DNA of 62,851 nt, the filler included, from Nitrospirota bacterium (GTDB taxonomy: Bacteria > UBA2233): NCBI GenBank assembly GCA_011620345.1. It is 6 parts of 6 records of this genome, joined end to end, with 100 filler letters (N's around TTAATTAATTAA, not from the genome) between each part and the next. Parts side by side here need not be neighbours in the genome. Positions count along the whole stretch, not along the records: positions 50,577 to 59,715 come from WOZJ01000002.1; 5 more parts are not named here. One strand, 5' to 3'. The position numbers and the translations under genes are program-made. Below the pieces are notes generated by a model that saw nothing but the letters and a program-made list of their open reading frames with translations, searched no databases and was not told the DNA's origin. Below are positions 41,074-59,900 of this stretch, piece after piece (the first letter of the stretch is position 1; every line of letters starts with the position of its first letter).

Positions 41074-41263
41074 GTTTTGCGTCTCCCGGTTGTTATTTTA
41101 GTTATGTGAGCATTGTAGCATGGCCTCGAAGACCCTAAAAGCGCTTGAAATAGACGGTATTTTNNNNNNNNNNNNNNNNNNNNNNNNNNNNNNNNNNNNN
41201 NNNNNNNTTAATTAATTAANNNNNNNNNNNNNNNNNNNNNNNNNNNNNNNNNNNNNNNNNNNN

Positions 41264-43401: not shown

Positions 43402-46400
43402 TTCGCACCCCTCTGAAAAAGAGAATCAAGCCGGCGGATCAGGCCCGGATCTGTCCTGTGAAAATACACCCCTTGGTCCTGGCCGTTCCCCATCCCGCGT
43501 ACAAAGAGGTAGTAGGCATCCCCGAGGTTTTTTTCTGGCGTATACTCCCTTAAGCGCAACCCAAGGTAGCGATGCAACGCGACTAGGTAGATGAGGAACT
43601 GGAGGTCGTAGTGAGATGCGCGGATCGCGGCCTCGAGGTCTTTTTTGCCGTACCCAGCGAGCACGTTGGTCTTGAAGTCCACGATCGAAAACCTGCCTTC
43701 GTGCTCGAAGACCAAATCGATCGCCCCGGTCATCATGCCTCTTAAAACTCTTCCGCCGTCAGCATCCGATGAAAGCCCTCTGCCGTGGCCTTTCTCTTGG
43801 AGGAACTTCAAGACCTGCCCAAGCCTTTCCCCCCCAAGCGGGAAGAAAAACTTCATCTCCGCGACACGGAATTCTTGCTGGATGGCCGACAAAGGCCTAT
43901 TTATTTCGGGCAGGGGCGAATGGAGAGTTCGGCATACCATGTCCACAATGGCCATCAGCTTGGCCCGTTTCTCTGCATCTTCCTCCCCAAGCCCCACCCC
44001 TTCTTTCGAAAAGACGCGTTCGATCCGTGCCATGAGCTGTTCGGCCGGGCATTCCCCCGGCTTTGGCCATGCCGCAACATCGGCCATCTGAAGGACGGCA
44101 TGGAATGCCCGGCCAAAGCCAGGGCCTTTCGGCAGGGCGCAGGGCTCGGCCTCTTTGCCGGGTGCAAGGGCCTCTTCTTGAGGAGTCCCGCTTTCTGGAG
44201 CCCTGGAAGGCTCATCCTCGCCTCCGGCTTCCTCTAGCATGCCCGCTTGGCCGTGGCTCAAGCCGGTAAAGCTAAAAACCCCCCAAGGTGGGCGTTGCAC
44301 GGGGAAATCAGTTCGTACCCCCTCCCCGGGCGTGATGCAAGGAGGCGGCAGGCGGCCGTCGCCTTTTGGCTTGGGGAGCTCTTCGATCGCGATGTCTGGG
44401 TTTTCTTCGAGCGGCTCGAGGCTTTGGCGCACGGCCTCGGGCGTCAGCTCGCAGGAATTGGGGCTCAGGAGCCTGAAGAGCGCGCCATTTTCGGCCGTAT
44501 TCACCGCCCCGTACGCCAAAAACACCGCGACCTTCGCCCTGGTCAGCGCTACGTACAAAAGCCTCACACTCTCGGCCCGGCATTCGTTCATTGCCCTTTC
44601 TTTGCTCGCGTTGTCCGGGTCGGTCCCGTAATCGATCCAGGCCTGGCCGCCCTCGTCATGGTAGAAATACGGCGGATTTTCGGGCTTTCCCTGGGTGCCG
44701 AAAAACATCGCGAGCGGAAGGAAAACGACGGGGTACTCGAGCCCTTTGGCCTTGTGGACGGTGCTGACATGCACGGCGTTCTCGTCGCTCTCAACCCGCA
44801 ACTGGGCAGGACCCTTGTTTTGGACGGCATTCCGGATCTCTTTTTCCAGCCAGCGGGTCAACCCCACCATCCCGAACGTTCGGAGCTCGGCCTCGGCCAA
44901 GAGCTCCGCGATCTGAAGGTAATTGGCCATGCACCGCTCCCCGTCGTACCGGCCAAGCACGCCCGAAGCGGCATCCTTGAGGAAGTCCTCCAGCATCTTA
45001 AGGACACCATACCTTGACCAGCCATCGTAGGCCTGCTGAAACACCTCCAAGACTTTTTGCATCTCGCCCTCGTCATCCCTGAGCCTGGCCAGAAACTGGG
45101 TTAGGCATGCCCCATCCAAGCCCTCGAGGTCGAGCTGCCCCTTCTTCAATCGCGCCATGACGGCGCTCCTTGCCAAGTCTGTCGTCAGCGCCCCCCTGAC
45201 CAAGCGCTCGTTCCCGGGGTCTTGGGCGGCATGCAGCAGGCTAAGGACATGGGCGGCATGTTCCGTTTCCCAAACGCTCTTTTCGTGGAGGCATACGGCA
45301 GGGATCCCATGCCTTGAGAGTTCCGCCTGGATGCCGCTCGCGTCCTTGTTCGTGGGAACGATCACCGCAATGTCCGAGGCCTTCAACGGCTCAGAGGACG
45401 CCCCGTCTTTGGTGTAAAAGGCCCTGGATTCCGGGTGGAGAAGCTCGAGAATCGTCTGGGTCGTAGCCTCCATCGCCTTTTGCGTGGCGGCCGATTTTGT
45501 AAGCGATTGTTGGTCTTCTTTAGGAAAAAGCGTCCAAATCGTCATCGGCACAAGCGGCTTGCCTTTGAAGAGGACCGAAGCCTGCGCGTTTTTGAGCGCG
45601 GGCTCGATCTTACGGTATTCAACGCCCTTAAGGACAAATGGGTTCTTTAAGGAGCCAAAGAGGGACTCAATCGCGTTGAGGACGCCCGGGGTCGAACGGA
45701 AGTTCTTCTGCATCGAGAAGCGCTCTTTGGCATCCTCGGCCGCCTTGAGGTAGGTGAACACGTCCGCACCACGAAAAGCGAAGATGGCCTGCTTGGGATC
45801 GCCCACCATGATGAGCCCGCCAAAGTCTCCATCCGCATAGACGCGCTTTAAGATCTCGTACTGAAAGGGGTCGGTATCTTGGAACTCGTCCACGAGCGCC
45901 CAGGGCCACACTTTGTGGAGCTTCCTTGCAAAGCTTCCATCGTCCGAGCAGACGGCCCGGTGCAGGTCTAAAATCATATCGTCATAGCTAAAGAGCCGAC
46001 GCTCGCGCTTTCGTTCATGCGCCCTATCCTTTACCCGGCCAAGGATAAAGCGAAGCATGCCTACCTTCGATCGCCTTGCAAGCTCAATGATATTGCATGC
46101 ATAACCTGTTTCGCGGGCATGAAGCTTTGCTATCGAGCCTTTCTTGATCTGGCTGCCGATCTTTTCTGGGCCAAGGGAAAAGACCCAGCCTGGAAGGACG
46201 GGGATGCCCTCAAAGCCCCCATGAAGCGCGCATTCAAGCGCCGTAAAAAGGGGTTCGACGCCGCCTGCCAACTGGACGGCTTTTTCAAGCGTCCTGCCAG
46301 AGATGAATCCGCCCTCGGCCTCTATGGACAAAAGCGCCTCTTTTAGGGCGCTCCCTTCGGAGGGCCAAAGGGAGCGCACCTTGGCGGCCAGCGTGGCCAC

Positions 46401-47051
46401 CTCCTCGTAGGATGGGCCGATTAGCTTTGCGTAGGGTCTGTACAGGGCTGGCTCGAGTGCGCCAAAGAGCGTTTCCCACGTTCTCCACAAAGAGAGGAAG
46501 GCCTTGACTGCCGGTTCGTCGGCAGAAACCGCCTTGCTGCGCCAGTAATCGGCGATCACTTCCCTAAAGACATCCCGGTCGTCAGCCTGCTCGCCCCGAT
46601 CGAAAGGGATGCAGTTCTCAAACGCGCATTCCAAGGCCGCCCGAAGCGCAAACCCGTGAATGGTGGCGATCGTCGCTTCGTTCATCCTTTGTGCTTCCCG
46701 AAGGAGCCGGCGCGCAATGGCTCCCCTTTCTTGGCCGCCTTGGGCGCAGGCACGCTCGATTACGTCCTTGGCAAACCGCCACTCTTCGTTGTCTTGTTGA
46801 GCGCAGTCAGAGCCCAAGGCGATTCGGGAGGCTTGAACGATACGTCTTCTTATTCGGGAGCGTAGCTCCTCGGCGGCGGCACGCGTGAACGTGACCGTAA
46901 GAATCTGGGATACCTTAAGGCCTTTTTCCACGATCAAGCGAAGGTAAAGGCTCGCAAGCCCGAACGTCTTGCCCGTCCCGGCGCTCGCCTCAATCATACT
47001 AAGCCCGCCAAGGTGTATATTAAACGCATCGAAGGGTTGGAAGTCTGCCAT
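43398..47051 (-). CDS. recB: Exodeoxyribonuclease V beta subunit
   Basis: IEASAGTGKT, VTFT.AA..EL, DEFQDTD, GDPKQAI..FRGAD, TVHKAKGLEY, YVALTRA, nuclease G.IDL...DFKTN, Y.LQ. Confidence 0.97.
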   Translation of the reverse strand: MADFQPFDAFNIHLGGLSMIEASAGTGKTFGLASLYLRLIVEKGLKVSQILTVTFTRAAAEELRSRIRRRIVQASRIALGSDCAQQDNEEWRFAKDVIERACAQGGQERGAIARRLLREAQRMNEATIATIHGFALRAALECAFENCIPFDRGEQADDRDVFREVIADYWRSKAVSADEPAVKAFLSLWRTWETLFGALEPALYRPYAKLIGPSYEEVATLAAKVRSLWPSEGSALKEALLSIEAEGGFISGRTLEKAVQLAGGVEPLFTALECALHGGFEGIPVLPGWVFSLGPEKIGSQIKKGSIAKLHARETGYACNIIELARRSKVGMLRFILGRVKDRAHERKRERRLFSYDDMILDLHRAVCSDDGSFARKLHKVWPWALVDEFQDTDPFQYEILKRVYADGDFGGLIMVGDPKQAIFAFRGADVFTYLKAAEDAKERFSMQKNFRSTPGVLNAIESLFGSLKNPFVLKGVEYRKIEPALKNAQASVLFKGKPLVPMTIWTLFPKEDQQSLTKSAATQKAMEATTQTILELLHPESRAFYTKDGASSEPLKASDIAVIVPTNKDASGIQAELSRHGIPAVCLHEKSVWETEHAAHVLSLLHAAQDPGNERLVRGALTTDLARSAVMARLKKGQLDLEGLDGACLTQFLARLRDDEGEMQKVLEVFQQAYDGWSRYGVLKMLEDFLKDAASGVLGRYDGERCMANYLQIAELLAEAELRTFGMVGLTRWLEKEIRNAVQNKGPAQLRVESDENAVHVSTVHKAKGLEYPVVFLPLAMFFGTQGKPENPPYFYHDEGGQAWIDYGTDPDNASKERAMNECRAESVRLLYVALTRAKVAVFLAYGAVNTAENGALFRLLSPNSCELTPEAVRQSLEPLEENPDIAIEELPKPKGDGRLPPPCITPGEGVRTDFPVQRPPWGVFSFTGLSHGQAGMLEEAGGEDEPSRAPESGTPQEEALAPGKEAEPCALPKGPGFGRAFHAVLQMADVAAWPKPGECPAEQLMARIERVFSKEGVGLGEEDAEKRAKLMAIVDMVCRTLHSPLPEINRPLSAIQQEFRVAEMKFFFPLGGERLGQVLKFLQEKGHGRGLSSDADGGRVLRGMMTGAIDLVFEHEGRFSIVDFKTNVLAGYGKKDLEAAIRASHYDLQFLIYLVALHRYLGLRLREYTPEKNLGDAYYLFVRGMGNGQDQGVYFHRTDPGLIRRLDSLFQRGAK

Positions 47052-47069
47052 GGCCTTTGGTCTTAATCT

Positions 47070-50000
47070 TTATGATGATGACGATGGATCTTTGAGACAT
47101 GCCGCAATCGGCCCGCAGACTGCCCTAGCGATACGCTCGAACTCCTCGGCCATATCCTGAGTTACGGGAAGATGAAGACGAAAGAATGGATCTTTAGCTT
47201 CAAAAGAGGCGTGCCCGTTGGCAAGATTGCATTCTTTCGAGAGCCAATCGAAGGGCTTCTCTTTCTTCGGTTGTTTGCTCTGCTTTTGCCAGAATGAACC
47301 CGCAAGCCGTGGCATGAAAGGCAGGGGTTTTTGGTGTCCCTCTAAGAAGAGCTTGACGAGCGATTGTAAGGCGTCTTTGGCCGTTGCGCGGTCTAGGGTG
47401 CACCTCTTTGGTCCCACGAGACTCCAGTCCCCTTTGTTCTCCGCGATGCCGGCAAGGCAAAGCTCGCGCTTACCGCCATGGAGGACCCATGCAAGGTAAT
47501 CGATCCAGGCAGGAAGGACCAGATGGAGGCTAACGTCCCCGTTCAAGACCTTTCTAATCCCTACGGGTTGAGCTTCTTGAAACCACACGTCCCCTACGAC
47601 CCCCACCACTCTTAAGCCAGGCTCGAGCTCTGCCTGGACAAAAACGCTTCGGGGGCTTGCCTCGTTGCGCCATTCGTTCCATACCTCGAGCATCTTTCGT
47701 GCCCCCTCCAGTTCCTTCCCGTACTGGAAGAGGTCCATCGGTGGAGGGGCGAGCTTGCCCGTTCCTCGAATCCAATCAGACGGCTCTTTGGGGATTGCTT
47801 CCCCCGTCTTTTTGGCGTAGGAAAAAAGCCGCTCGCGCAAGCTCCATCTTTCGAGGCCGCCTAACTCAAACGGCTCGTCGTCGGGAAGCTCTTCTTCTTC
47901 CTTGGGCAGGCTCACTCCGAGGCATTCCTCAAAGAAAAACTCCGTTGGGTTTTTGAAAAAACTCTTTAGGTTGGCAAGCTCGAGAACACCCTCTTTGAGC
48001 GGATCTTGCTTTAGTGGCACGGGGTCGTACCCGATCGGACTCGGTTGCCCTTCTTGGCGCTCTTTGGCAAGTGCTAGCGATGCCTTGGCCCATCGTTTCG
48101 AAAACGTGAAGACCCGGCTGCTCTTTGCCCGCGGGTTTAGGTAGCGCAAGCTGAAAGGCTGCATCGGATGGCAGTGCACAATAGGGCTTTGCAAAGGCCC
48201 AGCCTCGTTTACGCCTTCCTGGACGCCCCTTTCGCCCTCACCCAGAAGGAATTGCTCCATAAAATCGAGCAGCTCGAATACGACGGGAGATGGCTCGAGG
48301 ATCGTACCTGCTTGAACGTCCATGCAGGTGTAACTTACGTAGAACACGTCCTTGGCGGCCATGATGCACTGGAGGAACAAAAGCCTGTCGTCTTCTGGAA
48401 GGGCACGTTCCCCGATCCATCTAGAAGATTGGATCAGGTTAAGGCCGGATTCGCCCTCTTGTCTGGGGAAAGCCCCGTCGTCCATCCCGAGCAGGCAAAC
48501 CACCCGAAACGGAACCGCCCTCAATGGCACCATGCCACAAAACGTCACCCCCCCGGAAAGAAACGGCTGGCGCGCCGAGCAGGCATGGAGCACCCCCTGT
48601 ATCGCTGCACGGACCACGAGCCATGGCATGGGGGCGCTCCTGTCTCCGGCCGGTCCGCTGGCCTCCAAAAGAACAGAAAGCGCTTCTTCGATGGCCTTTT
48701 TCGCGTCTTTCTCCGCTTGATCCCGCATGTTTGGCAAAAAGAGGCTCTCGAAGACGCCTTGAATGCGCGCGTGCCATTCCTTCGCGCTCAGCTCTTCTAG
48801 TGCGGTGTCGTACCAGGTTTTCAGCGTTTCGAGGAATTGCCAGAGCTTGCCCACGGCCTCGGCATCTTCCCCCTCGATGTCCGAGTACGGTACCACCCCC
48901 TCGACAACGGCCTCTTCGGTTGCCTGGGAAAGGCCAAGCAACAAGCGGTCCAGCCCGAAGCGCCAGCTGTTGTTTGCGTAGCGGCCGGCCCCCATGCGCT
49001 CGCGTGTCGTTTCGTCCAGCCCCCAGCGGACCCCGGCATCCTTAACCCATTTTTGGAGCCTGATTATCTCGCCCTCTGCAAGGCCGAACCGGCGCGCTAC
49101 GGCGGGGACACCAAGAAGGGCAATCAGCTCGCTTGCGGTCCATCTAGACTCCGGAATCCAGAGGACGTACTCGAAGGCCTCCACCATCGGATGAGAGGCG
49201 ATGCGCGGCCGATCGGACACCGAATAGGGGATGGACGACCCTTCAAACACCGCCTTGATGGCGGAAACATACCGGGTGACGTCCGGCATCATGACGACGA
49301 TATCCCTGGGCTCTACGTCCTTGAACCGCACCATGATGTCGAGCAGTTGATCGAGCAAAACCTGAACTTCCCTGAGCGGGCCGTGGCAGGCATGAATTTG
49401 GACGGAGACGTCCCCTTTGGCCTTGGTTGTACCCTTATTAGCCTGCTCGTCCGCTTTCATGCGGACAATCCCGCCCTTTAGCCGGCCAAGGAGCGTATCG
49501 GCCTGAAGCTGGAGGGGCCTTTCGGGTGCGAGGACCTCAGCGTCTTCAGGCTCCAGCTCTTGTATGCAGACCTCTTTGGAATACATCAACCTTAGAAAGT
49601 CGCGCTGCGAACGGCCAAGCGAGGCAAGCAAGGGATGGGCCTTTCCTATCCAGGCCTCTGTCGCCTCGATGGCCTGCGCCCCGGATTCTTGAGCTTTGAC
49701 AGCCATGCTCGAACCCTCGGCCCTTATCGCATCCAGGTAGGCTGCGCTCGGGTTTTGCATGAAGTAAAGCACGTCGTTGGTGCGTGCGATGGCCTTAAGG
49801 AGAAGTAGGTGCTGCTTGGGAAGGCTGGTCAAGCCAAAACACATGATGCGATCTGGCAGGCCGGTTTGGTTGCCTACCGCGCATTTTTCCGCCAACCCCA
49901 GAAAACGCCGGAATCGTTCGGGCGTATGTTGCCCGCCGTGCGTTTGGACGAGCTCTCGCCATACGAGTGCCTCCCATTTCCAGGGGTCTTCCGGGTCTTT

Positions 50001-50476
50001 CCTTGCCTCCCAGTCGTTAAGCATCCATGGCCTGTGGACGATGTACTCTTCGAAGGCCGATGCCAGCCTTTCTGCAAGCTGCCAGCGCATGAGCGCCCTT
50101 GGCTCTCCTTTGAGGTAGCGGGCGATGCGTTCGTCTTTTTCGGCCAGCCCAGGAAGCGCGTCGTAGAGGTACCATTTAAGGTAGGGGGGATCTAGTGGGG
50201 AGAGGGGCTCTTCTTGAAGGGCGTGCCAAGGTAAAGTCGAGGCGTCGGGCACGTCTCCTAGCGCCCTGTGAGCGGCTTGCCATAGGTAATGGGCAGGTAG
50301 CGAGATCTCTAAGTTTGCGCATACGCCCTCAAGATCGGCGAGCGTCATCCTTAGCCAGCGCTCTATCCCCGCGTTCGGCACAAGGATCACTTCCGGCACC
50401 AAAGAGCGCCCTTTGGCCTGGTGGCCGCCCTTTAGATGCCAAGAAAGCGCCTTTGCCAGCTCATAGAGGTCGCTTC
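47070..50476 (-). CDS. recC: Exodeoxyribonuclease V gamma subunit (first few codons cut by contig end)
   Basis: HPLLASLGR, HACHGPLREVQVL, DIVVM.PD, GVRWG, GLDRLLLG, FCGMVPLRAVPF, HPMQPFS. Confidence 0.96.
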
Positions 50477-50607
50477 NNNNNNNNNNNNNNNNNNNNNNNN
50501 NNNNNNNNNNNNNNNNNNNNTTAATTAATTAANNNNNNNNNNNNNNNNNNNNNNNNNNNNNNNNNNNNNNNNNNNNAGCAGTCTCTTTCGTAGTGAAGAA
50601 AATATGT

Positions 50608-50734
50608 GTTGAAAAAGTGAACCTCAAAAAGGGCTTTTTATGGGGATTTTAAAATTCTGTTGAAAATTTCATCGTGCATTCGTTGAAAGATTCAACATTT
50701 TTGGAACCGTGCAGGTCTCACAAAAAACTTCAAC
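50608..50734. promoter_or_regulatory. Repeated GTTGAA-N3-TTCAAC palindromes (putative sigma54 activator binding sites)
   Basis: Perfect copy 50682-50696; near copies 50659-50673 and 50608-50622; half-site 50729-50734. Confidence 0.7.
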
Positions 50735-50771
50735 AGGCCGAAAGTGTGGAAAAATCAGGCACGCTACGGCA

Positions 50772-50786
50772 TGGCATCATTATTGC
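50772..50786 (+). promoter_or_regulatory. Sigma54 (-24/-12) promoter
   Basis: TGGCAT-CATTA-TTGC matches TGGCAC-N5-TTGC; an NtrC-type activator gene lies at 55970. Confidence 0.8.
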
Positions 50787-50828
50787 GTACATATTAAGCG
50801 TGGACAGTCGAAAAAAAAGGAGAAGGCC

Positions 50829-51953
50829 ATGAAAAGTCTCATTGCAGGGTTTGGGTTCTTCGCGATTCTGACTTTGACCCTTCCATTGCTCGCGTTGACG
50901 ATGTTTGTGCTTCGTTACGCCGGGTTCCTCGTTCTTGTCCCAATAGGGGCGGCCCTTGTGGGAAAAGAGTTGGGAGTTGCCGTTTGTGAAGGGTCTGGAC
51001 GTACGATTCAAAGGAGGGTTGCCATGAAACGTAGGTTGTTGGATGCTTTCGCCGCGCTGGCCGTTTTGCTCGGCGTCGTCGTAGCCATTCCCGTGATGGC
51101 GCTCGGGGTCGTCTTGTTGCGGCCGCTTTTGCTTGGTGCGGTTCCTGTCGGGGTTGTCGGTATTGGGCTTGCTCGCTTAGTTTCTGCCAGGCGCGTGGGC
51201 GAGGGCCTTACCAAGCTGATGGTGACCGTCTCGGTCCTGATCGGCTTGCTCGTGGCAATCCCGCTTATGGCCTTTCTTGGGTTTACGCTGCGCTATGCGC
51301 TGGCCCTGGCTATCCCTGCGGGCGTGATTGGAGGCGCGCTCGCGCTCGCGCTTGATCCGAGCTTCAGGGCCTTGATCCTCGAAAAGACGGCCGATCGGCG
51401 TTTGCGGCAGATCATGGGGTTTATGCTTTCAGACAACTGCCTTTATTCCCCAAGCCATACCTGGACAAGGGTAGGGATCGGCCGGAAAGAGGCGGAAATC
51501 GGCCTGGATGACTTCGCCCAGAAGCTCCTTGGGAAGGCCGGCGCGATCGAGCTTTCGGTAACCCCGGGCACACTGGTGAAGCAGGGCGAAACGATCGGGA
51601 TGCTCCGGCACGACGGGCGTTCGATTCCGATCAAGTCTCCGCTCGAAGGGGTCGTCTCCAGCCTGAACAGGGGCGTTTTGAGCGATCCTGGCAGGATTAA
51701 CCATGACCCATACGGCAGGGGTTGGATCCTGAAACTCGAGCCGCAATCGTTTGCCTACGACCGTGTCCTGTTGAAGACCGGAGAAGCGGCGAGGGAATGG
51801 CTCCAAAACGAACTTGAGCGCTTCCGGGTGATCGTTCAGGGTAGCCCAGCGCTTGTCCCCGTCCTTCAGGATGGCGGCGTATTTGTAGAGAACCTGGCCG
51901 AACACTTGGACGATGCCACGTGGGCAAGGCTCAAAGAAAGCTTTTTCAAATAA
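50829..51953 (+). CDS. Membrane protein with three TM-hairpin repeats and a C-terminal GcvH-fold domain (no lipoyl Lys)
   Basis: AGGAG RBS; YSPSHTW, IGLDDFAQKLLG, SPLEGVV..LN, DPYG.GW; tail PVLQDGG. A second strong RBS/ATG at 51024. Confidence 0.85.
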   Translation: MKSLIAGFGFFAILTLTLPLLALTMFVLRYAGFLVLVPIGAALVGKELGVAVCEGSGRTIQRRVAMKRRLLDAFAALAVLLGVVVAIPVMALGVVLLRPLLLGAVPVGVVGIGLARLVSARRVGEGLTKLMVTVSVLIGLLVAIPLMAFLGFTLRYALALAIPAGVIGGALALALDPSFRALILEKTADRRLRQIMGFMLSDNCLYSPSHTWTRVGIGRKEAEIGLDDFAQKLLGKAGAIELSVTPGTLVKQGETIGMLRHDGRSIPIKSPLEGVVSSLNRGVLSDPGRINHDPYGRGWILKLEPQSFAYDRVLLKTGEAAREWLQNELERFRVIVQGSPALVPVLQDGGVFVENLAEHLDDATWARLKESFFK

Positions 51954-51964
51954 GGAGTGCGGGC

Positions 51965-52861
51965 ATGGACATTCGAAGGCGAGATTTTCTAAAGCTTACA
52001 GGACTTGCGGCAGCGACCGGAATCCTCGGCCCTGGGGGGAACGGAAGGGTCCTCGGGGCCGAGACTGGGCCCAAAGACGATGGTTACGGGCTTTTGATCG
52101 ACACGACGAGGTGCGTTGGATGTCGCTCTTGCGAGCTTGCCTGTGCCGAGGCCAACGGCCTTAAAGAGCCAGAGCAGTTCGGGGATGAGGCCATCTTTCA
52201 AAGGGTCAGGACGACCTCTCCCGATGCCTTTACCGTGGTCAATCGCTACGAGACCCAAAAAGGCCAAGTCTTTCGAAAGCAGCAATGTATGCACTGCCTT
52301 CAACCTGCATGCGAGTCTGCTTGCCTGGTAAGGGCGCTTCGAAAGCATCCGGAAGGCCCGGTCACCTGGAACGATAAGAAGTGTCTTGGGTGTCGCTACT
52401 GCATGATCTCTTGCCCGTTCGACGTGCCCAAGTTCGAGTACAACAGCCCGAACCCGCGGATCCGGAAGTGTACGCTTTGCTTCGAGCGGGTCAAGGCTGG
52501 CAAGCAAACAGCTTGTGCCGAGGCCTGCCCTGTGGAGGCGATTCGGTTTGGCAAACGCTCGGAACTGCTGGAAACCGCAAAAACAAGGATTTACCAAAAC
52601 CAGGACAGTTACGTCCATTCCATCTACGGCGAGCACGAGGCGGGCGGAACGAGCGTGATGTACTTATCCGCCGTCCCGTTCGAGCAGCTTGGCCTCAACA
52701 CGGGCCTCGATAAGAAACCTTACCCCGAGCTGACGCAGGAATATCTGCATAACATCGTGCTGGTGGATTTATTCTTCCCCATCTTCTTGCTCGGCATAAG
52801 CTATGCGGTGAAGGGCAGGGAGAAGGAGATCAAAGCCCAAACGAGGGAGGAAGAGCGATGA
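51965..52861 (+). CDS. Tat-exported 4x[4Fe-4S] protein (HybA/HmcB/NrfC-like) with C-terminal TM anchor
   Basis: RRDFLK Tat motif; CVGCRSCELAC, CMHCLQPACESAC, CLGCRYCMISC, CTLC...CAEAC; IYGEHEAGGT. Confidence 0.93.
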   Translation: MDIRRRDFLKLTGLAAATGILGPGGNGRVLGAETGPKDDGYGLLIDTTRCVGCRSCELACAEANGLKEPEQFGDEAIFQRVRTTSPDAFTVVNRYETQKGQVFRKQQCMHCLQPACESACLVRALRKHPEGPVTWNDKKCLGCRYCMISCPFDVPKFEYNSPNPRIRKCTLCFERVKAGKQTACAEACPVEAIRFGKRSELLETAKTRIYQNQDSYVHSIYGEHEAGGTSVMYLSAVPFEQLGLNTGLDKKPYPELTQEYLHNIVLVDLFFPIFLLGISYAVKGREKEIKAQTREEER

Positions 52862-54171
52862 AACGCCAAGACTCAAAGATGCCCATGCGGGTCGAGCCAC
52901 TTAGGAGGGCAACGAGGCCCTCGTTTAGGGCGCTAAGCACCGAGTTTGCAAGGTTCGTACGTTTCATACTTGAAGAGCTCAAGCCCAAGGGCAAGATTCT
53001 TACGCCCTTTAACGTGATCACGGGCGTGATCATCCTCGTTGGGCTCGTGATCATCGTCGTTCGGTTTGCCAAGGGGCTTGGTGCCGTAACGAACCTCTCC
53101 CAGGAGTTCCCCTGGGGGCTGTGGATCGGGTTTGATGTTGTCACGGGCGTGGCCTTTGCGGGCGGTGCCTACGTTTTGACGTTCATGGTCTACATCCTGG
53201 GGTTAGAAAAATACCACCCTATTGCCCGGATCACGGTGCTTAACGGTTTTTTGGCCTACGCGTTTTATGCAGGAGCGCTCCTGCTCGACATCGGGCGTCC
53301 TTGGCATATCTTCAACCCGATCATCGGGAACTCTTTCGGGGCCGCTTCGGTTATGTTCCTCGTCGCCTGGCATTTCTTCTTGTACACGGTGGCTGAGTTC
53401 GTAGAGTTCTCCCCGGCCATCGGCGAGTGGTTAGGCTACCGGAGGCTTACTCGTATCTTGCAATCATTGACGCTCGCGGCCGTCATCTTCGGCATCATGC
53501 TCTCGACGGGCCATCAATCTGGGTTGGGGGCGCTGTTCTTGATGGCCAAGGGCAAGTTGCATCCGCTTTGGTATTCAAGCCTCTTGCCCGTTTCATTCTT
53601 TGTCTCCAGCATCTTTGCCGGGCTGTCGATGGTGATCTTGGAGGGAACGATCAGCGAACGGGTGTTTTCCGACCGCATTCCAGGCACCCATAAGGCTTCC
53701 CACGGCGAGATCGTGGTCGGCCTTTCCAGGGTATGCGTAGGAGCGATGTTCGTCTACTTGTTCCTCGAGGTCGCCAAGCTCATAAACGAAGGGACGATTG
53801 GCTACCTTGCGACCCCGATGGGCGCCTGGTACCTGCTGGAGGTCTTGGGATTCATGCTTATCCCGGCGGGCCTGTTCCTTCTGGGGGCTCGAAGCGCCAA
53901 CCTGTTCATGCTCAAAATCGCCGCGTTCGGAACGGTGCTTGGCGTTGCGCTCAACCGTCTCAACGTCTCGATCATCGCCTACAAATGGAATGCTCCTTTC
54001 CATTACGTGCCCTCCTGGATGGAGATTTGGGTGACGCTTGCCGTCATCAGTGCGGAGATTTGGGCGCTTCGCTGGATTGTCCGCCGCATGCCCGTTTACG
54101 AAGAACATGAAGAACATTTGGATGTCGAAGAACTATCGGTTAAGGAGGGAGTCCAATGGAAGGCTATGTAG
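52858..54171 (+). CDS. NrfD/PsrC-family membrane subunit (HybB/HmcC-like)
   Basis: GLGAVTNL...PWGLWIGFDV, DIGRPW, LST.HQSGLG, KLHPLW, LNRLN, Y.PSW.E. Confidence 0.93.
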   Translation: MKRQDSKMPMRVEPLRRATRPSFRALSTEFARFVRFILEELKPKGKILTPFNVITGVIILVGLVIIVVRFAKGLGAVTNLSQEFPWGLWIGFDVVTGVAFAGGAYVLTFMVYILGLEKYHPIARITVLNGFLAYAFYAGALLLDIGRPWHIFNPIIGNSFGAASVMFLVAWHFFLYTVAEFVEFSPAIGEWLGYRRLTRILQSLTLAAVIFGIMLSTGHQSGLGALFLMAKGKLHPLWYSSLLPVSFFVSSIFAGLSMVILEGTISERVFSDRIPGTHKASHGEIVVGLSRVCVGAMFVYLFLEVAKLINEGTIGYLATPMGAWYLLEVLGFMLIPAGLFLLGARSANLFMLKIAAFGTVLGVALNRLNVSIIAYKWNAPFHYVPSWMEIWVTLAVISAEIWALRWIVRRMPVYEEHEEHLDVEELSVKEGVQWKAM

Positions 54172-54869
54172 ACCTGCACGCACTCAAGGCGCTGAATTAC
54201 CTTGTGGCCGTCATCTCGCTGATTTCCCTGGTCTTCTTCTGGCAAGTCTTGAAGGCTCCGGCGGTCAGGAGAGTGGTCCAACGGGTGGGGACGAGCATCG
54301 CGGACATGGCCAGGTGGTTTTTCTTGCCGGAGCATTACTACTTCCACCCAGGACATACCTGGGCATGCCCCGGGGATGACGGAAGGATGTTGGTGGGCAT
54401 GGACGACTTTGCCACGAAGCTCGTTGGCCAAATTGACGAGATCGAGCTCCCCAAGCCGGGCACCCGTGTTCGGCAAGGTCAGGTGGTTTGGAAGGTCCGG
54501 GTGGCTGGCAAGACGTTCTCCATGCGTTCGCCCGTCGAAGGGGTCGTGGAGGAAATTCATGAGGCGGTACGTGAGAACCCAAGCCTCCTCCTGAATGATC
54601 CTTACAAAAACGGCTGGATCTTGCGCATCAGGCCTGAAGACCCGGCCGCTTCACTCTCCACGCTCCTTTCTGGGGGTCTTGCCAGGCGCTGTCTTGAAAC
54701 CGACCTGTCAAGGCTGCTCCCAGCTGGCTCGGGAGAGCTTGGTGTACTCGCTCAAGATGGCGGGCTTCTCTTACAAGACGGCGGGATGCCGATCCACGGG
54801 ATTGCCCAAGCCCTCGAACCCGAGCGCTGGGATGAGCTCGTTTCCGAAATGTTCCTGACGAAGGAATAG
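54156..54869 (+). CDS. Single-TM GcvH-fold protein (canonical lipoyl Lys absent)
   Basis: YFHPGHTW, VGMDDFA.KLVG, SPVEG.V, DPYKNGW; tail LAQDGG-LLLQDGG. Confidence 0.88.
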   Translation: MEGYVDLHALKALNYLVAVISLISLVFFWQVLKAPAVRRVVQRVGTSIADMARWFFLPEHYYFHPGHTWACPGDDGRMLVGMDDFATKLVGQIDEIELPKPGTRVRQGQVVWKVRVAGKTFSMRSPVEGVVEEIHEAVRENPSLLLNDPYKNGWILRIRPEDPAASLSTLLSGGLARRCLETDLSRLLPAGSGELGVLAQDGGLLLQDGGMPIHGIAQALEPERWDELVSEMFLTKE

Positions 54870-54894
54870 GTTCGCTCAAACGAAGGGGATAGCC

Positions 54895-55143
54895 ATGAAG
54901 AACAAGCACGGTCCCGCCAAGGGTGCCAAGGAAAGCCCAAGGACGGCCCTTTGGGTCGTCCTTGGGCCCCTGCTTGGGCTTATGTATGTTGTCTTGATCC
55001 CACTGATCGGGCTTTTTGCGCTTGCGTTTCTGGCGGTTCGTGCGCTCGAGAGAGCGTTTCGTCCTTCAAGGGCGGGGGTCGTGTATCCTGACGGAGGACT
55101 TTCTGTCAAAAAAGCGGGAAAAAAAGAGGGGGAGGAGGGATGA
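54895..55143 (+). CDS. Small membrane hairpin protein
   Basis: GAAGGGG RBS; GPLLGLMYVVLIPLIG hydrophobic core; stop overlaps next start (ATGA). Confidence 0.75.
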   Translation: MKNKHGPAKGAKESPRTALWVVLGPLLGLMYVVLIPLIGLFALAFLAVRALERAFRPSRAGVVYPDGGLSVKKAGKKEGEEG

Positions 55144-55862
55144 AGACAATAGAAGGTCTCACGCCCTTGATCCCTAAAGGCGAAACTGCCTGCGTGTGGA
55201 TGGAGGCGGGAGTTGTCAATTATAAGCTGTGCGATTGCGAGTGTGGATGCGAATCCTGCCCGTTCGATCGGGCGATCAGGAGGCAGAGCGGCCCCGGTGC
55301 GCCCTTCTACGAAGCGAGCGGGATAAGGCTGTATCCAGGCCTTTTCTACCACCCAAGGCACCTTTGGGTGATGATTGAGGAAAAAGGTGAGGTCAGGATT
55401 GGGTTGGACGACTTTGCCCAGCGGCTCTTAGGTTCGGTCGAGAGACTTGTACTTCCTAAGACAGGGATAAGGATTGAGACCAACCCTCCAAAAGTCTTTG
55501 CGAGAGGTACGCTTCTTTCGCTTGCTGCTCCGATTCACGGTGTGGTGATCCAGGCGAACAAGAGCCTTATCGACACGCCTTCGTTGATCCATGGGCACCC
55601 CTACACGAGAGGCTGGCTTGTCAGGGCTGTCCCCTCCCGCCTCAAGGAGGACCTTGAAATGCTCGCGTACGGGCACGGGGCAAAGCGTTGGCTCCAAGAA
55701 GAGTGCAGCCGACTTACGGGCTTTTTTTCCAGGGCGCTCTCCCCGAGCGAATCCCAGGCCGGACCGACGCTCCAGGATGGTGGGGTTCCACTTCTGGAGT
55801 CGTTGGACCAGTTCGACCCGCGGACGCTTAAGGAGGCGGTCAGGTTGTTTCTTGTTGGATGA
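55140..55862 (+). CDS. Soluble GcvH-fold protein with Cys-rich N-terminus (no lipoyl Lys)
   Basis: CVWM.AGVV.YKLCDCECGCESCPFD; FYHPRH.W, IGLDDFAQRLLG, APIHGVV...N, HPY..GW; tail PTLQDGG. Confidence 0.88.
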   Translation: MKTIEGLTPLIPKGETACVWMEAGVVNYKLCDCECGCESCPFDRAIRRQSGPGAPFYEASGIRLYPGLFYHPRHLWVMIEEKGEVRIGLDDFAQRLLGSVERLVLPKTGIRIETNPPKVFARGTLLSLAAPIHGVVIQANKSLIDTPSLIHGHPYTRGWLVRAVPSRLKEDLEMLAYGHGAKRWLQEECSRLTGFFSRALSPSESQAGPTLQDGGVPLLESLDQFDPRTLKEAVRLFLVG

Positions 55863-55969
55863 GACAATCTTCTTGCTCGAGGGCTTGGTTGAGTTCTTGG
55901 ACAAAAGATCGTATACTATTTCGAAGAAAAAGTTGTTTTAATAATTCCTGTTTATCGGGAGATTAAGCC

Positions 55970-57328
55970 ATGCAGGAAGTAGTCAGCCTCCTGATCGTGG
56001 ACGATGAGCCTTCGGTGGGTGATTCGCTCCTGAGCTGGTTCAAGGAGGAAGGCTATGAAGTCGAGGTTGCCCGGGACGCCAAGACATGCCTCACCAAAAT
56101 GGCCGAGCGGCAGTATGACATCTACCTGGTCGACATCCGGATGCCCGGGATCGACGGGCTTGAGCTCCAGCGGCGCATCAAGAAGGTCCAGCCCGATGCT
56201 ACGATCATCATCATGACGGCCTATGCAAGCGTCGAGTCGGCCGTGGAGGCGCTCAAGCAGGGGGCTTACGATTACATCACCAAGCCCTTCGACCCGGACG
56301 AACTTGCCCATCTTGTCCGGAACGCGGCCGAGCGAAAGCGTCTTATGCTCGAGTCGCAAAAGCTCAAAACGCGCCTCGAAGAATCCTCCATGACCCCCGA
56401 GATCGTCGGCAAGAGCAAGGCCATGCAGCAAGTTATGGAGCTCGTGCATACCGTGGCCAAAACAGATGCCACCGTACTGATCCGGGGCGAGTCGGGGACC
56501 GGCAAGGAGCTTATCGCCAGGGCCATCCATGCCAACTCCAGCCGTCGCTACATGCCGATCGTTACTGTCAATTGCGGTGCACTGGCCGAGGGTGTGCTCG
56601 AAAGCGAGCTGTTCGGCCACGAAAAGGGGGCGTTCACGGGGGCGCACTACCAACGAAAGGGCAAGTTCGAGATGGCAGACGGGGGGACGATCTTCTTGGA
56701 CGAAATCGGGGACATCAGCCTCAAGACGCAGACCGACCTCCTTAGGGTGATCGAAGAGAAGAAATTTTTCCGTGTTGGCGGCAACAAGGAGATTTACTCC
56801 GACTTCCGAACGATCGCGGCCACAAACAAAGACCTAGAGCAGATGGTGGCCAACGGAACCTTTCGCTCGGATTTGTACTACCGCCTGAACGTCTTTACCA
56901 TCTTCATCCCACCGCTCAAGGACAGGCCCGAGGACATCCCGGTTTTGATCGAGCATTTTATCAAGAAGTACGCAATGAGCATGAACAAGCCGATTCGGGG
57001 AATCGACCCGTCGGCCATGAGCATGCTTCTTACCTACGACTGGCCGGGCAACGTAAGGGAGCTCGAGAACGCCATCGAAAGGGCCATGGTGGTAGCGAAA
57101 TCCGAAGTCTTGCATTCGGAAAACTTCGCGTTCCGCTTCGAAGCCCAGAAGGACGACGAAAAGCATGCCCGGCCGCTGGGAACGCTCTCGGACATGGAAA
57201 AAGAATACATTCAAAATGTGCTCGAAGAAACTGGGTGGAACATCGCGCAGTCGGCTAGGCTCTTGGATATCGACCGCGTGACGCTCTACAACAAAATCAA
57301 AAAGTATAACCTTACCCGTAAGGCTTGA
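55970..57328 (+). CDS. Sigma54-dependent response regulator (NtrC/AtoC family)
   Basis: Receiver (VDDE, DIRMPG, KPF), GESGTGKE, ESELFGHEKGAFTGA, FLDEIG, DLYYRLN, WPGNVREL, Fis HTH. Confidence 0.97.
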   Translation: MQEVVSLLIVDDEPSVGDSLLSWFKEEGYEVEVARDAKTCLTKMAERQYDIYLVDIRMPGIDGLELQRRIKKVQPDATIIIMTAYASVESAVEALKQGAYDYITKPFDPDELAHLVRNAAERKRLMLESQKLKTRLEESSMTPEIVGKSKAMQQVMELVHTVAKTDATVLIRGESGTGKELIARAIHANSSRRYMPIVTVNCGALAEGVLESELFGHEKGAFTGAHYQRKGKFEMADGGTIFLDEIGDISLKTQTDLLRVIEEKKFFRVGGNKEIYSDFRTIAATNKDLEQMVANGTFRSDLYYRLNVFTIFIPPLKDRPEDIPVLIEHFIKKYAMSMNKPIRGIDPSAMSMLLTYDWPGNVRELENAIERAMVVAKSEVLHSENFAFRFEAQKDDEKHARPLGTLSDMEKEYIQNVLEETGWNIAQSARLLDIDRVTLYNKIKKYNLTRKA

Positions 57329-57354
57329 AAACTCTCCAACCCGGGTAGGTACCG

Positions 57355-59022
57355 ATGGCAGGTCTGAGGCAATCTTCGCTTGGAGCCTTCAAAAAAAGCT
57401 TGACGCTCAAGTTGCTGGTCTTTTTGGTCGGCTCACTGGTCTTTTTGGTCGGCGTTATTGCCTACACATCCGTTTCTACCTGCCGAAGCCGCCTGCTGGC
57501 GACGGTCCTTTTGAACGCCGAACAGACGGCCGATGTGCTCAAAAGGAGCCTTCGGTACGCCATGCTCAAGAACGAGCGTGAGACGATCTACCATATCATC
57601 AATACTGTGGCCAAGGAGCCGGGCATCAAAAAGGTCCGGATCTACAATAAAGAAGGCCAGATCGTTTTTTCATCTCTAGAGTACGAAACGGGCTCGTTCG
57701 TGGACCTTCGAGCGGATGCCTGTATCGGATGCCATGGCCAAGCAAGGACGCTCGAACGCCTTCCTCGGACAGATAGGTTTAGAGAATACCACCTCGCCAA
57801 AAAGGGCCATGTGCTAGGGTTGATCCTGCCGATCGAAAACGAGCCCGAGTGTGCGAACCAAGGCTGCCATGCAAGCCCGAAAGCCAAGCCTATTCTTGGA
57901 GTGCTCGATGTCATCCTTTCGCTCACGTCCGTCGATGAGAGCGTGAAGACCCTCCAAGCGCAGCTTCTGATCCAGCTCCTCGTGCTTTTGTTGGCAGTCA
58001 CGCTCGTGAGCGTGCTTTTGCTGGTTCGGTTTGTCCGCAACCCCCTAAGGGTGCTTCTTGAAGGAACAGAACAGCTACGCGCAGGGAATCTGTCCTTCGT
58101 GCTCAAAGTCACTTCGGAAGACGAAATCGGGGACCTTTGCCGTTCGTTTAACGAGATGGCCCGGTCACTCATGGAGGCGAGGGACAAGATCCTTGCCTGG
58201 AACGAGGAGCTCGAAAAACGGGTGGAAGAGCGAACGGCCCAGCTTAAAAAGGCCCATGAGGAGATGATCCGCTCCGCCAAGATGGCCTCCGTCGGCAAGC
58301 TTGCGGCTATCGTGGCCCACGAAATCAACAACCCGCTCTTTGGGGTTCGGACCTACGCCAAGCTGCTTCAGAGGCGGCTCGAAAAGGAGGGGGTGCTCAA
58401 GAATGGCCCAGAGGAGGATACTGCCAAGATCTTGGCGACGATCGAGGCCGAAGTTGCCCGCTGTGGTGAGATTGTAAAGAACCTCCTTCAGTTTTCCAGG
58501 CCAAGCGCCCCAAAGATAGAGCTAAAGTCCTTGAACGCGGCCGTAGAGAAAGCAATACGCCTGATCCAGCACCAAATCGACCTGCTCGGGGCTGAAATGA
58601 TCGTGGGGCTTGACAAGAGTCTTCCCGACATTCCGATCGACGAACAGAAGATCCAGCAGGTGCTCCTTGCGCTCCTGATCAACGCGTGCGAGGCAATCCC
58701 GAAGGGTTCGGGGAGGATCGAGGTTCGGACGGGGCGCTCGGAGGCAGGAGATGGGGTAGAGGTTCTTGTTCGGGACAACGGGGCCGGTATCGATGAGGAC
58801 GTCCTGCCGCACATCTTTGAGCCTTTCTTCACGACCAAGGGTCAGAGGCCGGGGGGTGGAGGGACAGGCCTTGGGCTTTCCGTCGTCCAGTCCATCGTGA
58901 CACTCCACCACGGCCGGATTGCCGTCAGCTCCAAGAAAGGAGAGGGAACGACGTTCGTCATGCTCCTGCCGTTTAAGCAGCCTGAGCGCGAGGAAGAGTT
59001 TGGCCTTGAGGAGGTCATTTAG
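57355..59022 (+). CDS. Sensor histidine kinase with periplasmic heme-c motifs, HAMP, HisKA and HATPase domains
   Basis: Two TMs flank CIGCH and CANQGCH; DEIG.L..SFN.M; AHEINNPL; DNG.GI, FEPFFTTK, GTGLGL. Confidence 0.94.
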   Translation: MAGLRQSSLGAFKKSLTLKLLVFLVGSLVFLVGVIAYTSVSTCRSRLLATVLLNAEQTADVLKRSLRYAMLKNERETIYHIINTVAKEPGIKKVRIYNKEGQIVFSSLEYETGSFVDLRADACIGCHGQARTLERLPRTDRFREYHLAKKGHVLGLILPIENEPECANQGCHASPKAKPILGVLDVILSLTSVDESVKTLQAQLLIQLLVLLLAVTLVSVLLLVRFVRNPLRVLLEGTEQLRAGNLSFVLKVTSEDEIGDLCRSFNEMARSLMEARDKILAWNEELEKRVEERTAQLKKAHEEMIRSAKMASVGKLAAIVAHEINNPLFGVRTYAKLLQRRLEKEGVLKNGPEEDTAKILATIEAEVARCGEIVKNLLQFSRPSAPKIELKSLNAAVEKAIRLIQHQIDLLGAEMIVGLDKSLPDIPIDEQKIQQVLLALLINACEAIPKGSGRIEVRTGRSEAGDGVEVLVRDNGAGIDEDVLPHIFEPFFTTKGQRPGGGGTGLGLSVVQSIVTLHHGRIAVSSKKGEGTTFVMLLPFKQPEREEEFGLEEVI

Positions 59023-59025
59023 GCC

Positions 59026-59565
59026 GTGCGTGGGATAGAGCTCGTCCCCTTGGGAAGGGTGGACATGCGGGCGGTAGATTTCCTCTCGCTCGTTTTGCCC
59101 GACACGTTTAGGGTGCCCTGCAGCGTAAGGAAGCTCGCAATCGACATCGAGCCCGCGTTTGACCCTAAAAGAAGACAGTACCACTCCACGAAACTTATCG
59201 TGAGGCTGCTTGATTTTGCAAGAAGGGATTACAAAATGCTTGGCGTCACGGATGTGGACCTGCATATTCCCATCCTGACGTTTGTGTTCGGTGAAGCGCA
59301 ACTTGGAAGGTACTGCGCCGTTGTTTCTACAAGTAGGCTCCATCAGAGCTTCTATGGCTTCGAGGAAGACGAGGTGCTGTTTTTGGAGAGGCTCGAAAAG
59401 GAGGCGATTCACGAGCTCGGGCATACGCTTGGGCTGATCCATTGCCCGGACTACGCTTGCGTGATGCACTACGCCAACGCAATCGAGGACATCGACCTGA
59501 AGGCGAACACCTTCTGCCATGCCTGTATCTCGACAGTTCAGCAAAACCTTCTGGCCGGAAGGTAG
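59026..59565 (+). CDS. Archaemetzincin (peptidase M54) zinc metalloprotease
   Basis: R.QY, DL.IP.LTFVFGEA, HELGH.LGL.HCxxxxCVM, FCxxC. Confidence 0.93.
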   Translation: MRGIELVPLGRVDMRAVDFLSLVLPDTFRVPCSVRKLAIDIEPAFDPKRRQYHSTKLIVRLLDFARRDYKMLGVTDVDLHIPILTFVFGEAQLGRYCAVVSTSRLHQSFYGFEEDEVLFLERLEKEAIHELGHTLGLIHCPDYACVMHYANAIEDIDLKANTFCHACISTVQQNLLAGR

Positions 59566-59900
59566 TTATCGTCCCGTTTGCGCCGTAAGGCCCCAACTTG
59601 CTGGTGTCAAGTCCCAAAAGTGCCTTACTTTCCTCCGATAGACGATCCCATCTTCGCACCCTCTAGATAGCGGGTCTGTTGTCCTGCAAGAAATCACCAT
59701 CGAATTTACCCCTCCNNNNNNNNNNNNNNNNNNNNNNNNNNNNNNNNNNNNNNNNNNNNTTAATTAATTAANNNNNNNNNNNNNNNNNNNNNNNNNNNNN
59801 NNNNNNNNNNNNNNNAGCCGCGGGCAGCAACCCTGGCAAGCCGCCAAACTTCCGCCTTTTGCTTGAGCCCATGATGGCTCCGTCACGATAATGGGAACGC

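Follow-up and report, generated by a model that had tools for sequence, protein, structure and literature searches.

Lysine-less H-protein-like domains accompany a conserved Fe-S/NrfD membrane module that may link cytochromes c to quinone in Nitrospirota and other bacteria

The Hmc and Nhc complexes of sulfate reducers each contain a four-cluster iron-sulfur (Fe-S) protein of the twin-arginine translocation (Tat) type (HmcB, NhcB) and an NrfD-like subunit with 10 transmembrane (TM) helices (HmcC, NhcC), and E. coli hydrogenase-2 is anchored by a comparable pair, HybA/HybB. According to the available text of PMC8076601, PMC6303296 and PMC13059093, Nhc, Hmc and Qrc have periplasmic multihaem cytochromes c as partners. 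In Qrc (QrcABCD, a cytochrome c3:menaquinone oxidoreductase), electrons are described as passing from a periplasmic cytochrome c through Fe-S clusters to quinone at the NrfD subunit, with proton uptake from the cytoplasm (PMC6303296, PMC13059093; available text). Here, we describe a gene cluster at positions 50577-59715 of a 62,851-nt stretch of DNA ("the window") from a Nitrospirota bacterium (assembly GCA_011620345.1), in which an Fe-S/NrfD pair is accompanied by three proteins with the fold of the glycine cleavage H protein (GcvH), hereafter G1, G2 and G3. We propose, at a probability of about 0.5, that the cluster encodes a conserved, inducible cytochrome c:quinone module of the Hmc/Nhc/Hyb kind, with lysine-less H-fold proteins as cytoplasmic accessory subunits and induction through a haem-c kinase and sigma-54. 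The Fe-S/NrfD core is familiar; what is new is the widespread accessory domain family, alongside a distinctive regulatory arm.

The cluster occupies a 9.1-kb contig of its own and comprises nine open reading frames (ORFs), all on the (+) strand:

50829-51953 (+): G1, H-like protein (Pfam GCV_H, 64.7 bits); the longest ORF starts at 50709
51920/51965-52861 (+): Fe-S protein, HmcB/HybA-like; likely start 51965 (MDIRRRDFLK); matches Fer4_11 and other 4Fe-4S models
52858-54171 (+): NrfD-family membrane subunit, HmcC/HybB-like (Pfam NrfD, 44.8 bits)
54156-54869 (+): G2, H-like protein (GCV_H, 71.1 bits); 16-nt overlap with the NrfD gene
54895-55143 (+): 82-residue membrane ORF, expression uncertain; one TM helix
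55140-55862 (+): G3, H-like protein (GCV_H, 59.8 bits)
55970-57328 (+): NtrC-type sigma-54-dependent response regulator with REC, AAA+ and HTH_8 domains (Sigma54_activat, 240.5 bits)
57355-59022 (+): sensor histidine kinase with haem-c motifs (Pfam kinase domains; CIGCH and CANQGCH)
59026-59565 (+): archaemetzincin-family Zn metalloprotease (Pfam Peptidase_M54, 89.5 bits, cut-off 24.4)

An earlier note on this DNA had placed three GCV_H-fold genes around genes for a Tat-type protein with four [4Fe-4S] clusters and an NrfD subunit, which our analysis bears out; it had missed the conserved regulatory arm, i.e., the putative haem-c sensor kinase, the sigma-54 regulator and the archaemetzincin. 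The note had also held that the operon looks complete. A promoter element is indeed present (see below), but the contig starts only ~250 nt upstream of G1 and stops 150 nt past the last gene, and completeness therefore rests mainly on homologous loci. The window itself is a chain of contigs with six N44-TTAATTAATTAA-N44 spacers and one N100 run (joins at 10096-10195, 26044-26143, 31677-31776, 41164-41263, 50477-50576 and 59716-59815; the TTAATTAATTAA spacers carry stops in all six frames), so that two genes separated by a spacer need not be adjacent in the genome.

All three G proteins score well above the cut-off of Pfam GCV_H (PF01597; 22.2 bits) and fall under every NCBIfam GcvH cut-off, with best scores of 72.4 bits (TIGR00527, cut-off 117) and 68.4 bits (NF002270, cut-off 115.85). 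They are ~33% identical pairwise over the barrel and a common C-terminal extension. Alignment by phmmer (HMMER) to the solved H-proteins of pea (1dxm) and T. thermophilus (1onl) placed the lipoyl lysine (ESVKA) opposite glycine in each protein, namely in HDGRS (G1), VAGKT (G2) and ARGTL (G3), in agreement with the earlier reading; G2 has a lysine one residue past this position, and G1 and G3 have none at or next to the tip of the hairpin. We extended the comparison to a family alignment of 295 sequences, made up of the 3 proteins of the window, 172 ORFs of the related loci and 120 relatives from databases; in it, the window proteins share one lipoyl column. This column holds Gly in 134 sequences, Ser in 70, Ala in 23, Asp in 20, Glu in 17 and Lys in only 10, and loss of the lipoyl site is therefore a family trait. 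The residue that follows is Arg in 105 members, Lys in 81 and His in 31. Judging from this alignment, the hairpin tip has no conserved residue that could be modified. The proposal that these proteins are not lipoyl carriers is upheld, and, since the lipoate-carrying lysine has been lost, they are not glycine-cleavage proteins.

The three window proteins differ in what precedes the barrel, and two of them are membrane-anchored, as had been supposed. G1 has a polytopic anchor of about six hydrophobic segments (three two-helix hairpins), followed by the GcvH-fold domain and the extension. Within its N-terminus (50829-51400), the two-helix hairpin seems to be repeated three times; the copies match one another in BLASTP at E 0.003 and show motifs such as LPLLALTMFVLRY and AIPLMAFLGFTLRY. 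In P0184 (309 residues), a near relative from the database, the hairpin is present twice. G2 has a short conserved periplasmic N-tail, with K11 and Y15 in at least 90% of sequences, and a single TM helix (N-out, C-in) before the same two domains. G3 has no hydrophobic segment and appears soluble; its Cys-rich N-terminus carries a C-x14-C-x5-6-C-x2-C motif that is found in 11 of 14 aligned G3-type relatives.

The C-terminal extension, which we call LQDGG, spans ~70 residues and has an invariant D-G within an (L/M)(Q/P/A)DGG motif. In G2, residues ~197-210 (54744-54785) form a 7-residue duplication of this signature motif (AQDGGLLLQDGG), also seen in its closest relatives P0002 and P0003; in the remaining aligned members the motif is present only once. 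Searching with a profile built from just the extension gave 1583 cluster representatives (50% identity) at E ≤ 1e-3, 342 of them reaching E ≤ 1e-10, and among the listed matches that were checked with Pfam the extension was C-terminal to GCV_H in 13 of 13 (one, P0164, has a cytochrome c7 domain after it). On these alignments, the G proteins are a separate family, defined by a lysine-less H-protein barrel with a C-terminal LQDGG extension. In comparison with GcvH and the sHdr-associated LbpA, they keep the barrel together with the HxW, DDFA and DPY..GW framework motifs, but differ in lacking the lipoyl lysine, in the LQDGG extension and in their N-terminal TM, Cys4 or receiver modules. Database names of the relatives are nonetheless "glycine cleavage system H protein", and a search of the ESM Atlas returned only "GcvH" clusters of the same family. 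Some G2-type relatives (P0007, P0016, P0018, P0031 and others) carry a precomputed Pfam accession, PF28260.1, which suggests that curators have delimited part of the G family.

It is very unlikely that the G proteins still act as swinging-arm carriers of some other group, attached to the lysine next to the tip in G2 or elsewhere, or that an Fe-S cluster in G3 is catalytic on the cytoplasmic side. The retained GCV_H fold and the basic residue after the tip in 217 of the 295 members speak for a carrier, but the residue at the tip varies, Arg and His together outnumber Lys at the position that follows, and neither G1 nor G3 of the window has a lysine at or beside the tip; the earlier suggestion of a different cofactor at the hairpin is accordingly unlikely. 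The four cysteines kept in G3-type proteins would suit a cluster, yet just 20 of the 173 G ORFs contain the Cys motif, genes for a ligase, transferase or radical-SAM enzyme do not recur near the modules, and a transmembrane electron path is lacking because NrfD proteins have no cofactors (PMC8076601, available text).

Next to its sequence, the family is characterized by its genomic setting. A scan of genomes of GTDB species representatives confirmed at least 522 loci, with 522 of 601 pattern matches encoding a G2 relative, and the best 80 of the at least 522 loci were examined here. The gene-neighbourhood survey thereby substantiates the expectation that similar clusters exist elsewhere. Beside the G2 relative we found an HmcC-like gene in 66 of the 80 loci, an HmcB-like gene in 63, a sigma-54 regulator in 50, a kinase in 48 and an M54 gene in 46; many of the loci without partners are cut by contig ends. 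Loci with two G genes were the most frequent (34), ahead of those with three (27), one (17) or four (2). The order HmcC-then-G2 was present in 53 loci, and in 50 of these the G2 start lies no more than 40 nt from the HmcC stop, with an overlap of ~16 nt, the same as in the window, in 21 of the 50. This spacing indicates that G2 is translationally coupled to the NrfD gene. The record titles of the loci name 11 phyla; the phyla in which the module occurs include Acidobacteriota, Thermodesulfobacteriota, Myxococcota, Gemmatimonadota and Bacteroidota, from soil, sediment and groundwater. Two Bacteroidota bins, L013 (1-15254) and L020 (3-10678), carry a tandem pair of Fe-S/NrfD modules, of which the leading one is the more HybB-like and has a 13-haem-motif cytochrome after it; a haem-motif kinase and receiver-domain/G-domain proteins are encoded between the two modules.

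The architectures of the G relatives place the domain in the cytoplasm. Of the 173 G-type ORFs found in related loci, 129 show one or more hydrophobic segments N-terminal to the barrel, 20 carry the G3 Cys motif and 24 neither, and the charges flanking the TM helices put the barrels on the cytoplasmic side. Several relatives carry further domains: P0160 consists of a signal peptide, a four-haem cytochrome c, a TM helix and a G domain; P0122 and P0126 of a signal peptide, PBP_like_2 (Pfam), a TM helix and G; and P0125, which resembles these two by eye, of a signal peptide, a periplasmic domain, a TM helix and G. A receiver domain is fused to G (REC+G) in P0176, L013:5539-6588, L013:6641-7804 and L020:6567-7730; one REC+G protein of L020 also appears fused to a kinase, which may be a merged ORF call. 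Given that receiver domains belong to the cytoplasm, and cytochrome c and binding-protein domains to the periplasm, the G domain is cytoplasmic in every one of these architectures. We conclude from the predicted topology that the G domain is cytoplasmic and usually membrane-anchored. The ends of the fusions at which it sits are the usual place of signalling output domains, and the earlier inference of an adaptor or sensor fits the fusions of the H-like domain with receiver, periplasmic-binding and cytochrome domains.

These fusions raise the alternative that the G proteins are primarily signal transducers, with GcvH-like+LQDGG as a cytoplasmic output domain that would pass redox or periplasmic information, received by way of a TM helix, a Cys4 site or a receiver domain, on to the kinase, the regulator, the archaemetzincin or other targets, and with the Fe-S/NrfD pair as cargo or as the thing sensed. 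We consider this unlikely. The output position of the G domain in the REC+G, PBP_like_2 and cytochrome fusions, the linkage of regulator, kinase and M54 genes in 50, 48 and 46 of the 80 loci, and the presence of G genes without HmcBC in some loci all speak for it. However, the coupling of G2 to the NrfD gene in 50 of 53 loci ties the family to the membrane subunit, linkage to G is more frequent for HmcBC than for the regulator (66/80 versus 50/80), and up to three or four paralogues per locus with conserved residues in the TM helix and N-tail look like stoichiometric subunits; moreover, no signalling target was identified.

The Fe-S protein encoded between G1 and the NrfD gene has 16 cysteines in four complete cluster motifs, an RRRDFLK twin-arginine motif (Pfam TAT_signal, 19.1 bits, under the cut-off of 22.7) and a C-terminal TM helix. 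Its best NCBIfam models are HmcB (329.7 bits, cut-off 420) and HybA (243.1 bits, cut-off 263), and its closest solved relative is FdnH (1kqf_B, E 3.5e-40). The membrane subunit exceeds the cut-off of 25.8 bits for Pfam NrfD (PF03916), has 10 hydrophobic segments and no haem motifs, and is best matched by the NCBIfam models HmcC (394.4 bits, cut-off 550) and HybB (258.4 bits, cut-off 450). Members of the HmcC-like family are 43-61% identical to the window protein across phyla; their tree mostly tracks the phylum labels of the record titles, with the window protein alone on a long branch.

For HybB, the available text of PMC8076601 gives quinone-site residues, including D109 and S129, and N-side proton-channel residues R89, Y99, E148 and H184, and it cites mutations of the latter four as impairing hydrogenase-2. 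We used this residue list to compare E. coli HybB with 49 aligned HmcC-like proteins. At the quinone site, the D109 equivalent is present in 49 of the 49 proteins and the S129 equivalent in 46, and the D58 equivalent is Asp in 42; on the N side, the equivalents of R89, Y99, E148 and H184 are present in 49, 48, 49 and 49 proteins, respectively. HybB S105, E133 and S190 are not kept. The Fe-S/NrfD pair thus looks quinone-reactive, as had been supposed, with the residues of both the HybB quinone site and the N-side channel conserved. The window protein is 27.8% identical to HybB over 388 aligned columns.

The earlier note had remarked on the absence of any catalytic subunit, GcvP/T/L or lipoate ligase, and none is encoded nearby, either here or in the 80 homologous loci. 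Specifically, Pfam searches found no hydrogenase, molybdopterin enzyme, GcvP/T or lipoate ligase among 37 ORFs from atypical loci, nor among 86 ORFs taken from the 278 that lie no more than 2.2 kb from a module. When the 650 non-module ORFs of the 80 loci were clustered, no neighbour family was present in more than 12 loci; the one that recurs most often is a small secreted cytochrome. In 23 of the 80 loci, the core contains or adjoins an ORF with three or more haem motifs; this number of loci is approximate because two of these ORF calls overlap module genes. Nine of ten tested cytochrome ORFs pass the Pfam cut-offs for Cytochrome_C7 or Class III, one matches TIGR04257 (c7 trihaem domain; 67.7 bits, cut-off 40), and NapC/NirT- or c7-type cytochromes occur near three more modules. 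The claim that no multihaem cytochrome is present therefore stands for this contig (and the other contigs of the window also have none) but fails for the relatives, in which a c7/c3 cytochrome is encoded in or beside the cluster in 23 of 80 loci; some relatives have such a cytochrome fused to the G2-type protein. Because cytochromes are the recurrent neighbours and because cytochrome-TM-G fusions exist, the missing partner is probably a pool of periplasmic cytochromes c.

Alternatively, the Fe-S/NrfD pair could be an ordinary anchor of the HybA/HybB type that serves a hydrogenase, formate dehydrogenase or molybdo-enzyme from another part of the genome, the cluster looking incomplete only because the contig is short. 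Such a role would agree with HybA and HybB being the second-best NCBIfam models and with the formate dehydrogenase beta subunit FdnH being the best solved relative of the Fe-S protein, and the contig, with its 9.1 kb and just 250 nt ahead of G1, leaves room for partner genes at other places in the genome. It is nevertheless quite improbable, given that no hydrogenase or molybdopterin enzyme recurs in the 80 loci and their flanks of up to 10 kb per side, that c-type cytochromes are the only recurrent redox neighbours, and that the module has its own promoter and its own regulator.

In the cytochrome c:quinone module that we propose, a Tat-exported four-cluster Fe-S protein (HmcB/HybA type) would sit on the periplasmic side of a cofactor-less NrfD-type protein (HmcC/HybB type), which would bind (mena)quinone near the periplasm and take up or release protons through a channel open to the cytoplasm. 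With no dedicated catalytic subunit, the pair would exchange electrons with small soluble multihaem c7/c3 cytochromes, as in Nhc, Hmc and Qrc, and the module would therefore act as a cytochrome c:quinone oxidoreductase. The G domains would lie at the cytoplasmic face, held there by TM helices (G1, G2) or soluble with a Cys4 site (G3), and would carry no lipoate. As accessory subunits docking on the NrfD subunit, with which we infer a physical association, they may regulate or report on the complex, for example at the cytoplasmic mouth of the proton path. The adjacent two-component system would drive the sigma-54 promoter, its kinase sensing periplasmic redox state or a haem ligand such as NO, and the archaemetzincin travels with the two-component system. 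For the G domain, a regulatory or adaptor-like role appears the most probable one because it repeatedly forms the cytoplasmic end of fusions with receiver, binding-protein and cytochrome domains, because NrfD proteins own no cofactor from which electrons could pass to G proteins, and because the conserved NrfD proton path opens on the face where the G domain is placed.

A number of observations weigh against the proposal of a cytochrome c:quinone module. The cytochrome c partner is inferred from a minority of loci, as the cluster lacks a cytochrome gene in 57 of the 80 and on this contig. Both the Fe-S protein and the NrfD protein fall short of the NCBIfam cut-offs for HmcB/HmcC and HybA/HybB alike, and a profile of the NrfD protein matched no solved structure among the PDB sequences. 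Six loci with several kb of flank (L043, L049, L074, L067, L069 and L076) have G genes and no HmcBC nearby; in the loci without HmcBC, no alternative partner recurs. There is no electronic link from the cytoplasmic G domains, or from the Cys4 site of G3, to the periplasmic Fe-S chain, NrfD proteins being cofactor-less. Finally, all 80 loci are metagenome bins, in which ORFs were called crudely by a longest-ORF rule.

A bolder and still tentative idea is that the lysine-less GcvH barrel with LQDGG is a previously unrecognised cytoplasmic effector domain that gates or tunes NrfD-type quinone/proton modules from the inside. Its input could come from a receiver domain, from a binding or cytochrome domain in the periplasm that acts through a single TM helix, or from a redox or metal site of the Cys4 type. 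If true, a respiratory complex would be under direct post-translational two-component control on top of sigma-54 control of transcription by a haem-c sensor, possibly for NO or redox state.

The cluster was previously described as having a sigma-54 promoter, and we located a -24/-12 element, TGGCAT-N5-TTGC, at 50772-50786 (+), which is the sole match to TGGCAY-N5-TTGC in the window. In 32 of 65 loci, a comparable element (at most 1 mismatch, GG/GC fixed) stands ahead of the core's first gene, whereas ~0.02 would be expected per 460 nt. Upstream of the promoter, by 75-165 nt, lie a perfect GTTGAA-N3-TTCAAC palindrome at 50682-50696 and degenerate copies at 50608-50622 and 50659-50673 (+). Allowing up to 2 mismatches, this motif occurs 8 times in the window versus 2.4 expected, a number that no shuffle reached, and 3 of the 8 matches are these sites, which together span 90 nt. 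The repeats at 50608-50696 are probably binding sites for the sigma-54 response regulator. With both a promoter element and an enhancer-binding protein present, the operon is predicted to be sigma-54-dependent.

The kinase has a periplasmic loop between two TM helices (residues ~37-205; 57463-57972), which contains CIGCH (CXXCH) and, 43 residues further on, CANQGCH (C-x3-4-CH); the two motifs are kept in 49 and 48 of 50 relatives, respectively, and the second is C-x4-CH, not CXXCH, in nearly all of them. A profile of the sensor domain matched the solved haem-c sensor domains 3b42 (E 1.4e-5) and 3b47 (E 3.3e-5), with the second motif aligned to their CXXCH; as a single sequence, the domain had no match in the PDB. 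As the CXXCH lies ~43 residues upstream of this aligned motif, the sensor would hold two putative haems. Pfam Mcp40H-20_sensor matched 36 of 41 kinase relatives at E ≤ 1, and the window kinase scored 25.5 bits with PF21563 (cut-off 27) and 25.3 bits with sCache_4 (cut-off 22.1). The available text of a 2026 preprint (PMC12889525) classes relatives of GSU0582/GSU0935 as haem-c Cache domains ("sCache_heme") and reports NO binding for two members. The periplasmic domain of the kinase matches their solved structures by profile and differs from them in having C-x3-4-CH instead of CXXCH and an additional CXXCH upstream. The signal could be NO, another haem ligand or redox state, and the cluster would add one more output for haem-c Cache sensors.

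The archaemetzincin matches NCBIfam NF033823 (162.5 bits, cut-off 145) and has an HELGH...C-x4-C motif. In 44 of the 46 loci that have it, the M54 gene is located beside the kinase or the regulator gene; the gene order is kinase-regulator-M54 in 22 loci, kinase-M54-regulator in 17, and regulator-kinase-M54 in the window. The cluster thereby offers a first genomic context for bacterial archaemetzincins, one that is consistent across loci.

In its proposed action the module is closest to Qrc and Nhc, and by sequence it is closest to HmcBC and then HybAB. With Hmc and Nhc it shares the Tat-type Fe-S protein and the 10-TM subunit, and the periplasmic multihaem cytochromes that serve those complexes are here the only recurrent redox neighbours; in L013 and L020, a G gene lies beside an extra Fe-S/NrfD pair that is accompanied by the 13-haem-motif cytochrome. 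It differs from Hmc in scoring below the HmcB and HmcC cut-offs and in that HmcA (a 16-haem cytochrome), HmcD, HmcE and HmcF are absent from the contig and do not recur in the 80 loci. Whereas Hmc and Nhc are known from sulfate reducers, the module described here occurs in many phyla that do not respire sulfate, and its lysine-less H-fold subunits have no counterpart among those listed for NrfD complexes in the available text of PMC8076601. In comparison with HybA/HybB, the two-protein anchor and the key HybB residues are the same, but the scores are below the cut-offs, the hydrogenase genes (hybO, hybC and the rest) are missing here and in related loci, and the E. coli hyb operon has no H-like gene. 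Qrc shares the proposed mode of action but is distant by sequence (QrcC 65 bits, QrcD 61.4 bits), and neither QrcA nor QrcB is found here. Relative to GcvH, the G proteins have no GcvP/GcvT/Lpd or lipoate ligase among their recurrent neighbours or among the 37 and 86 ORFs scanned; relative to LbpA, no Hdr-like or ligase neighbours were found.

We found no description of the cluster or of a lysine-less membrane GcvH family in the full-text literature, bioRxiv supplements and subscription journals aside; PMC3543383, PMC5701242 and PMC6067878, as far as their available text goes, are concerned with true lipoyl proteins. Given its presence in at least 522 species-level genomes of many phyla, the module would therefore be a common, unstudied piece of anaerobic or microaerobic electron transport. 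The available text of PMC8076601 lists no cytoplasmic protein partner for any NrfD-type complex, and a docking or regulatory domain at the cytoplasmic proton entry, if true, would be a new way to control such complexes. In addition, G genes are automatically named glycine cleavage H although their products cannot carry lipoate, and they therefore inflate the evidence for glycine cleavage and the reductive glycine pathway in genome and metagenome reconstructions.

The 82-residue ORF fills the gap between G2 and G3 and shares 4 nt with the start of G3. None of the 80 loci, in which the G2-G3 gap is usually 20-70 nt, encodes a relative at E ≤ 1e-5, and the ORF may be a lineage-specific small membrane protein or no gene at all. 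The possibility that it forms one split gene with G3 was rejected, as the N-terminus of G3 relatives is Cys-rich and not membrane-embedded. A scan of the contig with Rfam gave no match, and scans for terminators and sigma-70 promoters gave nothing above shuffled sequence. On the neighbouring contig of the window, the minus strand at 43398-50402 encodes ORFs of 1217 and 1110 residues, the first with an AGTGKT Walker-A-like motif near its N-terminus; together they look like a two-subunit helicase-nuclease.

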